Below, piece after piece: positions 11,101 through 48,200 of a stretch of 64,000 nt of DNA. The notes beneath the pieces are model-generated. The model was given only the letters and a program-made list of their open reading frames with translations. It was not told where the DNA came from and made no database searches. This DNA comes from Mobula hypostoma (Eukaryota), in the NCBI RefSeq assembly GCF_963921235.1, contig NC_086108.1, positions 18,352,001 through 18,416,000 of the forward strand, written 5' to 3'. Each line of letters opens with the position of its first letter. Position 1 is the stretch's first letter. Position numbers and translations under genes: made by a program.

Positions 11101-12870
11101 TTCCACCCCAATTTAAACCCCTTGTGCTAAGGAGATGCCAATCAATATTAGTTATATGGGAGGCAGGGTTTAAAGGTTGGCACAACATTGTGGGCCGAAG
11201 GGCCTGTACTGCGCTGTACTATTCTATGTTCTATGTTCTATGTTCTATAAAGTTAAGTCTCCCATCTAACAACCCTTTTATTATTGCACCGTTCCAGAAT
11301 CTGCCTCCCTATCTGCTCCTCGGTGTCCCTGTTACTATTGGGGGGTTTATAAAAAACACCCAGTAGAGTTATTGCCCCCTTCCTGTTTCTGACTTCCACC
11401 CACAGAGACTCTGTAGACAATCCTTCAATGACTTTCTCCTTTTCTGCAGCTGTGACACTATCCCTAATTAGCAATGCCACACCCCCACCTCTTTTGCTTC
11501 CCTCTCCGTTCTTTTTGAAACATCTAAAGCCTGGCACACTCAGCAGCCATTGCTGTTCCTGAGGCATCCAAGTCTCTGTAGTGGCCACAATGTCACAGTT
11601 CCACGTATTGATCCATGGTCTAAGTCCATCTGCCTTGTTTATGATACTCCTTGCATTAAAATGGACATATCTCAAACCATCTGGCTGAGTGCATCTTTGC
11701 TCTATCATCTGTCTGTCCTTCCTCACTAACTCCCCATCCTCTGTCTCTTCACTTCGGTTCCCAGCCCGCTTCAAATCTAGTTTAAACCCTCCCCAATAGC
11801 CTTAGCAAACCTCCCCTGCAGGATATCGGTCCCCCTCAGATTCAAGTGCAACCCGTCCTTTTTGTACAGGTCACACCTGCCCCAGAAGAGATCCCAATGA
11901 TCCAAAAATTTGAATCCCTGCCCCCTGCTCCAAACCTTCAGTCACACATTTATCCTCCACTTCATTCTATTCGTCTACTCACTGTCGCGTGGCACAAGCA
12001 ACAATCCCGAGATTACTACCCTTGAGGTCCTGCTTCTCAGCTTCCATCCAAACTCCCTGTATTCTGCTTTCAGGACCTCCATCCTTTTCCTATCTATGTT
12101 ATTGGTATCAATATGTACTACGACCTCTGTCTGCTCACCCTCCCATTTCAGGATATTGTGGACGCGATCAGAAACATCACAAACCCTGGCACCTGGGAGG
12201 CAAACTACCATTCTTGTTCCTTTTACACGTCCACAGAATCTCCTATCTGTCCCCCTAACTATAGGGTACCGTATTACCACCGCACTCCTCATCTGTTCCC
12301 TACCCTTCTGAGCCACAGGGCTCTATTGCTTCCCCCAGGTAGGTCGCCCCTCTCCCTCCCAACATCATTCAAAATAGAGTACTTATTGTTAAGGGGAACA
12401 GCACTACATGACACCCTGCTTTTCCTCTCCTGACGGTCACCCATTTATCTGTCTCCTGTGGCCCCAGGCTGATTACCTGCCTATGGCTCCCGTCTATCAC
12501 CTCCTCACTTTCCCTAACAAGCCGAAGATCATCGAGCTGCAGTTCCCTAAACCCGGTCTTTAAGGAGCTGCAGCTCGATGTCCCTGGCACAGATGTGGCC
12601 ATCAGGGAGGCTGAAAGTCTCCCAGACATCCCATATCTGACACCCAGAATAGAGAACTGGCCTCATAGTCATACCCACTATGCACCGAGCCCCATGAAAA
12701 GCTCCTTTTTAAAACTTTTCTCCCCGACCTATGCAAAGCTCTCTCTCTCTTCCAATCGATTAGTCCGCCGCTAATGCGCTGAGCCCCACAAAATTCTCCG
12801 TTTTTAAATTTTTATCTACGAACTGTGTGAAGCTCTCTCTCTATGAATCAATTGGGCCACTGCTAATGCT
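8118..12870 (-). mobile_element. Near full-length decayed CR1 LINE (5' UTR, ORF1 with SGNH esterase-like domain, ORF2 APE+RT) with internal insertions
   Basis: ORF1 11975-12316 (IVRGTDRRFCG...CLPGARV...VVVHIDTNNI); APE 11253-11774 (FNARSI, TETW, GGGVALL); RT fragments 8263-10194; duplicated ~95-bp unit at 12680-12870; inserts near 10238-10480, 10497-10845 and 11152-11248. Confidence 0.9.
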
Positions 12871-42203: not shown

Positions 42204-45200
42204 CACAATATCCTGGCGGGAAAGTTTAATAGAGCTGTTAGGGAGGGTTTAAACTAATTTGGCAGGGGGATGGGAAACGGAATGATGGAGCGGAGGAAAG
42301 GGAAAACAGAAATAAATTTAAGATAGTGAGCAGTAAAGATGTCAGGAAAGACAGGCAGGTGATGGGGCAAATTTGTAGCCATTGGGATGAGTTGCAGTGC
42401 AATAAAGTTGCAGTGAAATCAAAGCAAAAAGTACCAAATACTGGTCTTAAGGTGTTATACTTAAATGCACGCAGCATAAGGAATAAGGTGGATGATCTTG
42501 TTGTACAGCTACAGATTGGCAGGTATGATATTGTGGCCATCTCTGAGATGTGGCTAAAGGATGCATGTCCCTGGGAGCTGAACGTCCAAGGATACACGGT
42601 GTCTCGGAAGGATAGGAAGGTAGGCAGAGGGGGAGGCGTGGCTTTATTGGTAAGAAATGATATTAAATCATTAGAAAGAGGTGATATAGGATTGGAAGTT
42701 GCATAGAAACATAGAAACATAGAAAATAGGTGCAGGAGTAGGCCATTCGGCCCTTCGAGCCTGCAGCACCATTCAGTATGATCATGGCTGATCATCCAAC
42801 TCAGAACCCCGCCCCAGCCTTCCCTCCATACCCCCTGATCCCTTTAGCCACAAGGGCCATATCTAAATCCCTCTTAAATATAGCCAATGAACTGGCCTCA
42901 ACTGTTTCCTGTGGCAGAGAATTCCACAGATTCACCACTCTCTGTGTGAAGAGGTTTTTCCTCATCTCGGTCCTAAAGGGCTTCCCCTTTATCATCAAAC
43001 TTTCACCCCTCGTTCTGGACTTCCCTAACATCAGGAACAATCTTCCTGCATCTAGCCTGTCCAATCCCTTTAGGATTTTATACGTTTCAGTAAGATCCCC
43101 CCCTCAATCTTCTAAATTCCAACGAGTATAAGCCCAGTCGATCCAGTCTTTCATCATATTAAAGTCCTGCTATGCCAGGGATCAATCTGGTGAACCTTCT
43201 TTGTACTCCCTCTATGGCAAGAATGTCTTTCCTCAGATTAGGGGACCAAAACTACACACAGTACTCCAGGTGTGGTCTCACCAAGGCCTTGTACAACTGC
43301 AGTAGTACCCCCCTGCTCCTGTACTCGAATCCCCTTGCTATGAATGCCAGCATACCATTCGCCTTTTTCACCACCTGCTGTACCTGCGTGCCCACTTTCA
43401 ATGACTGGTGTATAATGACACCCAGGTCTCATTGCACCTCCCCTTTTCCTAATCGGCCACCATTCAGATAATAATCTGTTTTCCTGTTTTTGCTACCAAA
43501 GTGGATAACCTCACATTTATCCACATTAAATTGCATCTGCCATGAATTTGCCCACTCACCTAACCTATCCAAGTCACCCTGCATCCTCTTAGCATCCTCC
43601 TCACAGCTAACACTGCCGCCCAGCTTCGTGTCATCCGCAAACTTGGAGATGCTGCATTTAATTCCCTCATCTAAGTCATTAATATATATTGTAAACAACT
43701 GGGGTCCCAGCACTGAGCCTTGCGGTACCCCACTAGTCACTGCCTGCCATTTTGAAAAGGTCCCGTTTATTCCCACTCTTTGCTTCCTGTCTGCCAACCC
43801 ATTCTCTATCCACATCAATACCTTACCCCAATACCGTGTGCTTTAAGTTTGCACACTAATCTCCTGTGTGGGACCTTGTCAAAAGCCTTTTGAAAATCCA
43901 AATATACCACATCCACTGGTTCTCCCCTATCCACTCTACTAGTTATATTCTCAAAAAATTCTATGAGATTCGTCAGACATGATTTTCCTTTCACAAATCC
44001 ATGCTGACTTTGTCCGATGATTTCACCGCTTTCCAAATGTGCTGTTATCACATCTTTGATAACTGACTCTAGCATTTTCCCCACCACCGATGTTAGGCTA
44101 ACCGGTCTATAATTCCCCGGTTTCTCTCTCCCTCCTTTTTTAAAAAGTGGGGTTACATTAGCCACCCTCCAATCCTCAGCAACTAGTCCGGAATCTAAAG
44201 AGTTTTGAAAAATTATCGCTAATAAATCCACTATTTCTTGGGCTACTTCCTTAAGCACTCTGGGATGCAGACCATCTGGCCCTGGGGATTTATCTGCCTT
44301 TAATCCCTTCAATTTACCTAACACCACTTCCTTACTAACAGGTATTTCCCTCAGTTCCTCCATCTCACTAGACCTTCTGTCCCCCACTATTTCTGGAAGA
44401 TTATTTATGTCCTCCTTAGTGAAGACAGAACCAAAGTAGTTATTCAATTGGTCTGCCATGTCCTTGTTCCCCATAATCAATTCACCTGTTTCTGTCTGTA
44501 GGGGACCTACATTTGTCTTAACCAATCTTTTTCTTTTCACATATCTATAAAAGCTTTTACAGTCAGTTTTTATGTTTCCTGCCAGCTTTCTCTCATAATC
44601 TTTTTTCCCTTTCCTAATTAAGACCTTTGTCCTCCTCTGTTGGACTCTGAATTTCTCCCAGTCCTCAGGTGAGCCGTTTTTTCTGGCTAATTTATATGCT
44701 TCTTCTTTGGAATTGATACTATCCCTAACTTCCCTTGTCAGCCACAGGTGCACTACCTTCCCTGATTTATTCTTTTGCCAAGCTGGGATGAACAATTGTT
44801 GTAGTTCATCCATGCGATCTTTAAATGCTTGCCATTGCATATCCACCGTTAACCCTTTAAGTATCATTTGCCAGTCTATCTTAGCTAATTCATGTCTCAT
44901 ACCTTCAAAGTTACCCTTCTTTAAGTTCAGAACCTTTGTTTCTGAATTAACTATGTCACTCTCCATCTTAATGAAGAATTCCACCATATTATGGTCACTC
45001 TTACCCAAGGGGCCTCTCACGACAAGATTGCTAATTAACCCTTCCTCACTGCTCAGTACCCAGTCTAGAATAGCCTGCTCTCTGGTTGGTTCCTCGACAT
45101 GTTGGTTCAAAAAACTATCCCGCATACATTCCAAGAAATCCTCTTCCTCAGCACCCTTACCAATTTGGTTCACCCAATCTACTTGTAGATTGAAGTCACC

Positions 45201-48200
45201 CATTATAATTGCTGTTCCTTTATTGCACGCATTTCTAATTTCCTGTTTAATGCCATCCCCAACTTCACTACTACTGTTAGGTGGCCTGTACACAACTCCC
45301 ACCAGCGTTTTCTGCCCCGTAGTGTTATGCAGCTCTACCCATATCAATTCCACATTCTCCCGGCTAATGTCCTTCCTTTCTATTGCATTAATCTCCTCTC
45401 TAACCAGCAATGTTACCCCACCTCCTTTTCTTTCATGTCTATCCCTCCTGAACATTGAATATACCTGAATGTTGAGCTCCCATACCCTGGAGCCATGTCT
45501 CTGTGATCCCAACTATATCATATTCATTAATAACAATCTGCACTTTTAATTCATCCACCTTGTTACGAATGCTCCTTGCATTGACACACAAAGCCTTCGG
45601 GCTTGCTTTTACAACACTCTTAGCCCTTATACAATTTTGTTGAAAAGTGGCCCTTTTTGATTCTTGCCCTGGATTTGCCAACCTGCCACTTTTACTTTCA
45701 CCTTACTACGTTTTGCTTCTACCCTCATTTTACACCCCTCTGTCTCTCTGCACTTGTTCCCATCCCCCTGTTGTGAACTAACCTCCTCTCTCATAGTCTC
45801 TTTAATTTCATTCCCACCCACCCCCCCAACCATTCTAGTTTAAAGTCACCTCAGTAGCCCTCGCAAATCTCCCCGCCAGGATATTGGCCCCCTAGGATTC
45901 AAGTGCAGAATCATTATGGGTTGAGCGAAGAAATCGCAGGGGTAAAAGGACCCTGATGGCAGTTATTTATAGGCCTCCAAACAGTTGCAGTGATGTGGAC
46001 TACAAATTACAACAGGAAATAAAAAAGGCTTGTCAGAAGGGCAGTGTTATGATCACTGTGGGGGATTTTAACATGCGAGTGGATTGGGAAAATCAGGTAG
46101 GCACTGAATCTCAAGAGAGAGAATTTGTAGAATGTCTGCAAGATGGCATTTTAGAATAGCTTGTTGTTGAGCCCACTAGGGGATCAGCTGTGCTGGATTG
46201 GGTATTGTGTAATGAACCGGAGGTGATTAGAGAGATTGAGGTGAAGGAACCCTTAGGAGGCAGTGATCATAACATGGTTGAGTTCACTGTGAAATTTGAA
46301 ATAGAGAAGCCAAAATCTGATGTGACGGTATTTCAGTAGAGTAAAGGAAATTACAGTGGCATGAGAGAGGAACTGGCCAAAGTTGACTTGAAAGGGACAC
46401 TGGCGGGAAAGACAGCAGAGCAGCAGTGGCTGGAGTTTATACAAGAAGTGAGGAGGGTGCAAGACAGGTATATTCCAAAAAAGAAGAAATTTTCGAATGG
46501 AAAAAGGATGCAACCGTGGTTGACAAGAGAAGTCTAAGCCAAAGTTAAAGCAAAGGAGAGAGCATACAAGGAAGCAAAAATTAGTGGAAAGACAGAGGAT
46601 TGGGAGGTTTTTAAAAGCTTACAAAAGGAAACTAAGAAGGTCATTAAGAGCGAAAAGATTAACTATAATTAATTAACTATTAAGCTAGCAAATAATATAA
46701 AAGAGGATACTGAAAGCTTTTTCAAGTATATAAAGAGTAAAAGACAGATGAGAGTAGATATAGGACCAATAGAAAATGATGCTGGAAAAATTGTAATGGG
46801 AGATAAGGAGATGGCGGAGGAACTGAACGAGTATTTTGCATCAGTCTTCACTGAGAAAGATATCAGCAGTATACCGGACAGTCAAGGGTGGCAGGGAAGA
46901 GAAGTGTGCACAGTCACAATTATGACCGAAAAAGTACTCAGGAAGCTGAATAGTCTAAAGGTAGATATATCTTCCGGACCAGATGGAATTGCACCCGTGT
47001 GTTCTGAAGGAAGTAGCTGTGGAGATTGCGGAGGCATTAGTGATGATCTTTCAAAAGTTGATAGATTTTGGCATGGTTCCGGAGTACTGGAAGATTGCTA
47101 TTTAAGAAGGGGGCAAGGAAGCAAAAAGGAAATTATAGACCTGTTAGCTTGACATCAGTGGTTGGGAAGTTGTTGGAGTCGATTGTCAAGAATGAGGTTA
47201 CAGAGTACCTGGAGGCATATGACAGGATAGGCAGAACTCAGCATGGATTCCTTAAAGGAAAATCCTGCCTGACAAACCTATTACAATTTTTTGTGGAAAT
47301 TACCAGTAGGCTAGACAAGGGAGATGCAGTAGATGTTGTATATTTGGATTTTCAGAAGGCATTTGACAAGGTGCCACACATGAGGCTACTTAACAAGATA
47401 AGAGCCCATGGAATTATGAGAAAGTTACATATGTGGATAGAGCATTGGCTGATTGGCAGGAAACAGAGAGTGGGAATAAAGGGATCCTATTCTGGTTGGC
47501 TGCCGGTTACCAGTGGTGTTCCAAAGGGGTCTGTGTTGGGGCCGCTTCTTTTTACATTGTACATCAACGATTTGGATTATGGAACAGATGGCTTTGTGGC
47601 TAAGTTTGCTGATGATACAAAGATAGGTGGAGGGGCTGGTAGTGCTGAGGAAACGGAGAGTCTGCAGAGAGACTTGGATAGATTGGAAGAATGGGCAAAG
47701 AAGTGGCAAATGAAATACAATGTTGGAAAGTGTATGGTTATGCACTTTGGCAGAAGAAATAAACGGGCAGACTATTATTTAAATGGGGAGAGGATTCAAA
47801 GTTCTGAGATGCAACAGGACTTGGGAGTCCTCGTACAGAATACCCTTAAGGTTAACCTGCAGGTTGAGTCGGTGGTGAAGAAGGCGAATGCAATGTTGGC
47901 ATTCATTTCTGGAGGAATAGAGTATAGGAGCAGGGGTGTAATGTTGAGTCTCTATAAGGCGCTGGTGAGACCTCACTTGGAGTACTGTGGGCAGTTTTGG
48001 TCTCCTTATTTAAGAAAGGATGTGCTGACGTTGGAGAGGGTACAGAGAAGATTTGACTAGAATGATTCCGGGAATGAGAGGGTTAACATATGAGGAACGT
48101 TTGTCCGCTCTTGAACTGTATTCCTTGGAGTTTAGAAGAATGAGGGGAGACCTCATAGAAACATTTTGAATGTTGAAAGGCATGGACAGTGGATGTGGCA

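Follow-up and report, generated by a model that had tools for sequence, protein, structure and literature searches.

Sequence evidence for a conserved slippery heptamer and probable -1 frameshifting at the ORF1/ORF2 junction of CR1 retrotransposons

RESULTS

CR1 ORF2 is very probably expressed by frameshifting. Comparison of CR1 elements from a ray genome and other hosts suggests that ORF2 is very probably made by programmed -1 frameshifting, as an ORF1-ORF2 fusion. We found that ORF1 of these elements ends in the heptamer T_TTA_AAC, that the heptamer lies in the X_XXY_YYZ phase with a stop codon adjacent to it, that the two ORFs overlap by little more than the heptamer, and that the ORF2 frame continues through an open linker that mostly has no AUG. 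This arrangement is deeply conserved, and the heptamer appears to be a real, deeply conserved recoding signal. Because the second gene is usually without a usable start codon, a fused protein made by a one-base backward slip is likely. These comparisons support the preliminary description, which had proposed such a fusion from the window (the whole stretch of 64,000 nt that we analyzed).

Three junctions in the window. The features in the window are as follows.

11253..12673, - strand: third CR1 copy, with a decayed esterase ORF1 and a -1 frame open into the endonuclease
11780..11786, - strand: heptamer of the third copy, with TAG at 11777-11779
42206..42703, + strand: first piece of a 5'-truncated CR1 copy, with the last 16 ORF1 codons, the junction, the ORF2 linker, and the first half of the endonuclease
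42239..42241, + strand: TAG closing the ORF2 (-1) frame two codons 5' of the heptamer
42248..42254, + strand: slippery heptamer T_TTA_AAC, read as Leu-Asn in ORF1 and as Phe-Lys in the ORF2 frame
42255..42257, + strand: ORF1 stop codon abutting the heptamer; the -1 frame reads CTA (Leu)
42265..42277, + strand: candidate stimulator, the conserved G-rich motif GGGGGNTGGGAAY, 10 nt past the heptamer
42362..42364, + strand: in-frame ATG, ORF2 codon 38, retained only in the subfamily of this copy
42464..42706, + strand: start of the APE endonuclease, severed by the nested insertion, with the Asn of the NARS motif at 42464
42702..45905, - strand: nested CR1 of a different subfamily, 5' truncated about 60 nt above its junction, with a frameshifted linker
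45838..45844, - strand: heptamer of the nested copy, with TAG at 45835-45837
45904..46996, + strand: ORF2 of the copy at 42206 resumed past the nested insertion (46996 is the end of the stretch compared)

TTTAAAC at 42248-42254 on the + strand is followed directly by TAA at 42255-42257. As had been described, it stands in the ORF1 phase, and the -1 frame is shut by the TAG at 42239-42241, so that the overlap barely exceeds the heptamer. Both - strand sites reported earlier, each a heptamer plus TAG, are also present. TTTAAACTAR has exactly three matches in the window against 0.37 expected, and 1 of 100 shuffles reached three.

The copy that carries the 42248 site is a dead, truncated fragment. 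It retains only 16 ORF1 codons, with its 5' truncation at about 42206, roughly 42 nt above the heptamer. Its -1 frame is open from 42242 to 42706. ORF2 had been described as open through the endonuclease; this holds for the first half and fails beyond it, because the nested CR1 splits the copy at 42703/45904. The endonuclease start matches residues 73 to 145 of the 152 in Pfam PF03372, with a score under the curated cutoff. The two pieces are collinear and are 94.8% (498 nt) and 90.5% (1,100 nt) identical to the subfamily relative L196. The nested 3.2-kb copy is 92.8% identical to the intact element L186 over 3,215 nt. It is out of frame because 262 nt, instead of the 258 of its subfamily, separate its heptamer from the endonuclease motif, which confirms the downstream indel noted earlier. 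In the third copy the -1 frame is indeed open where an ORF had been placed at 11253-11774, and we correct its extent to 11801-11253, stop to stop. Three CR1 reference copies account for 29,786 of the 64,000 bases of the window. We also observed that the copy at 42206 and the opposite-strand copy nested in it (window 42206-46996) are both 5' truncated 40 to 60 nt above their own heptamers. The window copies are dead relics of the putative frameshift design. Since the 42248 copy is a dead fragment, the question shifts to the design of the family.

Intact elements carry CR1-clade traits. The elements have an esterase ORF1, an ORF2 with APE endonuclease and reverse transcriptase, and 8-bp 3' repeats. 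Of 20 stretches examined, two (L186 and L187) were fully open, with 341 open codons in the ORF1 frame and, counting from the heptamer, 1,006 in ORF2. ORF1, an SGNH esterase (PF13472, E value of 9e-18, in L077), comprises 311 residues when its first Met is taken as the start; the 42248 copy keeps a remnant of it only. The closest named ORF1 protein, 95% identical, comes from a devil ray. The L186 ORF2 contains the APE endonuclease (PF03372, residues 91 to 277) and the reverse transcriptase (PF00078, residues 564 to 781). A 3' end made of short 8-bp tandem repeats, not poly(A), is a trait of the CR1 clade, and such repeats terminate L186, L187, and L189. By eye, the junctions also agree with rows published for ray and shark CR1 consensus sequences. 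In most copies an ORF2-frame stop sits 2 or 5 codons above the heptamer, and the overlap of the two ORFs is therefore scarcely longer than the heptamer itself. The subfamily of the 42248 copy (L247 to L272) mostly has DRLH in place of DGLH as its esterase motif.

The heptamer is conserved at synonymous positions. We sampled 90 of 13,858 copies by an ORF1 motif, ignoring the heptamer. The heptamer was exact in 74, carried one or two substitutions in 10, and was disrupted by indels or insertions in 6. A column table was built from 70 of these copies (17 clusters), leaving out the 6 disrupted copies, 1 duplicate, and 13 copies with small indels. In this table TTA was the majority codon in 15 of 17 clusters, as was AAC, and the ORF1 stop alternated between TAG (8/17) and TAA (7/17). 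The preliminary description had noted that the codon before TTA changes while its third-position T stays. We found that this codon encodes Gly, Ala, Thr, Ser, Cys, Asp, or Asn and that its T, the first heptamer base, is present in all 70 indel-free copies.

Because the table admitted at most two heptamer mismatches, a genome-wide count is fairer. We searched the 3.48-Gb genome with a synonym-tolerant pattern (any first base, a Leu-like codon, an Asn codon, and a stop) and found 8,798 exact heptamers among 10,617 matches. The first heptamer base differed in 469 matches, which were dispersed over subfamily backgrounds, and the nonexact matches look like decay after insertion. A separate T_TCA_AAC subfamily was considered and rejected; with 10 copies against 336, this variant is sporadic decay.

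As a control we compared ORF1 columns among 10 diverged lineages (the majority sequences of 6 subfamilies plus 4 single copies, after 5 of the 15 candidates had been dropped as too short), with a median identity at 4-fold sites of 0.57. None of the 21 control columns with at least four amino acids had an invariant third base. Other invariant Leu and Asn columns of ORF1 use two or three codons, and the heptamer Leu and Asn use one each. At codons -2 and -3 before the heptamer (window 42240-42245), the third base was G in 10/10 lineages despite five or six amino acids. The constraint, or a G bias, thus reaches past the heptamer; G-ending codons are frequent in these elements, and the invariant G reflects either a 5' element or that bias. 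Alignment of the junctions, which had been put forward as a check, showed the synonymous positions of the heptamer to be invariant across subfamilies and distant hosts.

The ORF2 linker is open and mostly without AUG. Modal distances from heptamer to endonuclease were 258, 231, 162, 150, 216, 147, and 201 nt, all multiples of three, and 83 of the 111 copies with a detectable endonuclease motif were in frame. ATG was absent before the endonuclease Asn motif in 53 of 66 open copies. We then took majority sequences for the 10 subfamilies with at least three copies each. In eight, the -1 frame was free of stops from heptamer to endonuclease, with linkers of 49 to 86 codons; over the 495 codons of these eight linkers, we counted no stop in the -1 frame, compared with 32 and 55 in the other two. 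The remaining two (three copies each, with indels) gave no open majority linker. A 27-nt in-frame linker deletion has spread to nine copies. The linker thus behaves like a start-less coding sequence.

AUG was absent before the endonuclease in six of the eight open subfamilies; the subfamily of the 42248 copy retains Met 38, and one other has Met 53. In-frame ATGs upstream of the endonuclease, as described earlier, are therefore real for that copy and its subfamily and do not extend to most subfamilies. Across all eight, the first in-frame AUG lies at codon 38 or later, AUGs near the stop lie in other frames, and no stop-start AUG of the SART1 type overlaps or adjoins the ORF1 stop in the ORF2 frame. 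A conserved downstream ATG had been named beforehand as the observation that would speak against frameshifting, and we found none common across the subfamilies. APE enzymes use the Asn of NARS and the Glu of ETW for catalysis. The youngest subfamily has its first AUG at GDFN (codon 206 or 215), beyond both motifs; in L186 and L187 it is codon 206 of 1,006, inside the Pfam endonuclease match (91 to 277).

In one subfamily, two of three copies (L026 and L027) share an extra base in a linker A-run that breaks ORF2. This subfamily is possibly a nonautonomous branch.

No downstream structure, and a G-rich motif. Folding of the downstream sequence (stem, pseudoknot, or G-quadruplex) had been put forward as a check; neither folding nor pattern searches found a stem, a pseudoknot, or a universal G-quadruplex. 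Of 26 copies folded in all, the 23 from the ray all had z scores above -2, by ViennaRNA, which is blind to pseudoknots, over a purine-rich stretch that offers few pairs. The region downstream of the 42248 site folds worse than shuffles (z of +1.2). A two-tier G-quadruplex pattern was common in just three of eight subfamilies and a three-tier pattern in none, and a universal quadruplex was rejected. We found no long-range partner common to subfamilies. Pairing with the 3' end of the element was also rejected, with a weak match in one subfamily and none in another. A weak, recurring match to the protein-conserved Cys-Leu-Pro codons of ORF1 was seen as a sequence match alone. The distant metagenome element L151 has a 9-bp hairpin (445-467; z of -2.4) in place of the G-rich motif, and L175 has a weaker hairpin than that of L151.

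G runs had been reported 6 to 12 nt behind each site. A conserved motif, GGGGGNTGGGAAY, does start 10 nt after the heptamer, and it has decayed in the copy with the 11786 site. In column counts it has G at Gly wobble positions, and the alligator and crocodile consensus rows carry it at an equal distance from the heptamer. The junction thus has several features of a -1 frameshift cassette, namely, an X_XXY_YYZ heptamer in the phase of the upstream ORF, retention of the heptamer at synonymous positions, and a -1 ORF open from the heptamer without its own start (8/10 subfamilies open, 6/8 AUG-less). A classic stem-loop or pseudoknot 5 to 9 nt downstream was rejected, and because no ray copy folds better than a z of -2, we do not class the junction as a classic pseudoknot-type cassette.

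DISCUSSION

Other routes to ORF2. The main rival to frameshifting remains termination-reinitiation, in which ribosomes stop at the end of ORF1 and begin ORF2 anew at a nearby codon, AUG or otherwise, the conserved bases being the signal for this. L1 ORF2 is reportedly translated independently of AUG, which we count in favor of this route, as we do the two subfamilies with an in-frame AUG ahead of the endonuclease, the TTG (5/8 subfamilies) or ACG (2/8) among early ORF2 codons, and the lack of a frameshift-type structure on folding. SART1 employs stop-start coupling, according to passages of PMC3708506 and PMC3894237. However, AUG is missing ahead of the Asn motif in six of eight subfamilies, and no start-like codon is common to all. 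In the subfamily of the 42248 copy, which lacks near-cognate codons early in ORF2, the 38 codons up to the AUG are nevertheless open. Reinitiation also leaves unexplained the fixed -1 phase and the exact X_XXY_YYZ before the stop, and we consider it unlikely. It is still less likely that the bases are kept for some other reason (the end of the ORF1 protein, dual coding, or a binding site in RNA or DNA) while ORF2 comes from a separate transcript or internal entry. The esterase C terminus could need Leu-Asn, the constraint extends a few codons upstream, and internal entry has been proposed for LINE ORF2 generally (a passage of PMC3894237). However, a requirement of the protein cannot hold the wobble base at T in a codon that varies among at least seven amino acids, AUG is absent from most linkers, and ORF2 has no room for its own start because its frame is closed 2 to 5 codons upstream.

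Recoding at the RNA level, by splicing into the junction or by polymerase slippage that adds one base, would also join the frames, and an acceptor-like TTTGCAG/G lies just past the stop in several subfamilies. In the others this AG is missing or out of phase. LINE copies arise from element RNA, so recoded RNAs should leave recoded copies. We found an extra heptamer base in 37 copies against 8,798 without it, and among 30 copies picked by downstream sequence, 28 were unspliced through the heptamer and 2 were 5' truncated at it. Since spliced or base-inserted copies are absent or rare, we regard RNA-level recoding as very improbable. A 5'-truncation hotspot at the junction was rejected as well, as truncation points were spread across the 30 copies. 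Among the matches listed from four contig runs, whose type was guessed, none had a joint over the junction, which weighs neither way.

Proposed mechanism. We propose that in esterase-type CR1 elements a minority of the ribosomes that end ORF1 would slip by one base in the 5' direction on U_UUA_AAC, pass the adjoining stop, and read on into the endonuclease and reverse transcriptase. The product would be a Gag-Pol-like fusion, predicted at about 1,315 residues in the youngest subfamily, with the predicted junction ...Leu-Asn-Leu.... We infer that the pause would come from the stop codon and the G-rich motif, not from a local hairpin or pseudoknot. More tentatively, CR1 may use a structure-free -1 shift driven by the stop and a protein bound to the G motif, possibly ORF1p, and this shift may be ancestral to esterase LINEs, with other heptamers in distant ones; we hold this extension as a possibility of lesser probability. 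Vertebrate CR1 elements rank with the most numerous repeats in sharks, reptiles, and birds.

Several of the closest known systems are viral. Passages of PMC5009743 describe U_UUA_AAC as among the most shift-prone heptamers on mammalian ribosomes. They also describe the IBV-type coronavirus site, where the same seven bases, again phased X_XXY_YYZ, close a structural ORF and the polymerase is encoded in the -1 frame. Retroviral gag-pol frameshifting likewise places the polymerase in the -1 frame, as proposed for CR1. Unlike these viral sites, the CR1 junction belongs to a non-LTR element, has an overlap of about the heptamer and an adjacent stop, and, in the ray elements, has no downstream hairpin or pseudoknot that we found. 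In PRRSV-type protein-activated frameshifting, an unstructured motif 11 nt past the shift site stimulates, and in pea enation mosaic virus a nearby stop codon stimulates shifting at a stop-dependent site (passages of PMC5009743). These precedents may carry over to the CR1 stop and G motif, although the CR1 motif is G rich and at 10 nt, whereas that of PRRSV is C rich.

Among retrotransposons, a figure legend in a review asserts -1 frameshifting for ORF2 of the Dictyostelium APE-type non-LTR elements TRE5-A and TRE3-A (PMC5911963); these belong to another lineage with another ORF1, and the passages seen from that review do not include vertebrate CR1. In two-ORF Penelope-like elements, a frameshift with a pseudoknot can separate ORF1 (figure legend of PMC8557442), and esterase ORF1s are common to Penelope-like and CR1-type groups (passage of PMC3905857). 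Penelope-like elements form a class of their own, with an endonuclease of the GIY-YIG type, and the pseudoknot claimed there was not found here. Stop-start coupling in SART1 and the 2A-containing LINEs are known noncanonical routes to ORF2 (passages of PMC3708506 and PMC3894237). In contrast, CR1 has no overlapping stop-start AUG, and we noticed no 2A-like motif on reading the linkers.

We found no report of CR1 frameshifting in the searchable full-text literature, a scope that leaves the founding 1997 and 2003 CR1 papers and the Repbase reports outside. Those founding papers are said to describe closely spaced or overlapping ORFs and may have proposed slippage. In the searched portions of its main text and supplement, a 2026 survey of vertebrate CR1 does not contain the word "frameshift" (PMC13343379), and "CR1" is absent from the first 300,000 of the 449,034 characters of PMC5009743. 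The passages obtained from PMC11835228, PMC2734521, PMC5006619, and PMC4120745 hold no report of CR1 frameshifting, and the matches in the part of the PMC4316615 supplement covered were unrelated. LINE ORF2 translation is described in print as an open question (passage of PMC3894237). If our proposal is true, it would explain how the copying enzyme of CR1 elements is made. One of the major LINE clades of vertebrates would then use a retrovirus-like strategy, slippage would set the ORF1:ORF2 ratio, and the reverse transcriptase would be tethered to a lipid-binding esterase. Annotations that start ORF2 from its first Met would be too short, and the junction would have to be included in cloned CR1 constructs.

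The junction beyond the ray genome. Among 120 ORF1 matches listed, 71 of the 80 showing the DGLH motif end in Leu-Asn, including named shark, ray, coelacanth, frog, turtle, lizard, snake, and bird (hummingbird) proteins; the bird support is from proteins only, with no bird DNA among the sequences compared. More distant esterase ORF1s end in Leu-Asn in only 37 of 70 cases. Distant esterase ORF1s (P0112, P0120, P0230, P0235, P0257, P0283, P0291, P0303, P0248, P0247, and P0295) end in Gln-Gly-Asn (seven seen), Ser-Gly-Asn, Lys-Asn, Asp-Phe, or Phe-Phe-Arg. Such ends, known from proteins alone, would fit other slippery heptamers, for example, G_GGA_AAC.

In the supplement of PMC13343379, of which the first 400 characters per consensus were searched, we read by eye a heptamer plus TAR at the end of ORF1 in 17 of 20 matches; these were selected by motif and give no denominator. 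By our reading of the row codes, the hosts are alligator, crocodile, bowfin, bullfrog, elephant shark, coelacanth, several sharks and rays, and one teleost. In a bearded dragon row the heptamer is followed by TGA, and one catshark consensus has no stop directly behind it. The site was present in 6/6 CR1 rows located through upstream terms in the same searched portion.

A synonym-tolerant scan of public contigs gave 31 metagenome and 14 prokaryote-assembly matches. The heptamer was exact in all four CR1-like matches and in none of the 41 others. Three of these four contigs have a -1 endonuclease with no AUG ahead, and the fourth, at 257 nt, was too short. L151 is distant, with an ORF1 29% and an ORF2 43% identical to those of the ray. 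No CR1 was found in viral contigs, one weak match aside.

Where the heptamer follows a Gly or Ser codon, the site is an 8-bp palindrome, GTTTAAAC (window 42247-42254), and so the heptamer matches on the opposite strand too; other subfamilies do not keep the palindrome. CR1-like sequences also occur under prokaryote names (P0020, P0153, and L214). They include a Pseudomonas "SGNH hydrolase" 60% identical to ray ORF1, an archaeal "reverse transcriptase," and the 257-nt contig in a bacterial assembly, and these CR1-like entries are probably animal contamination.
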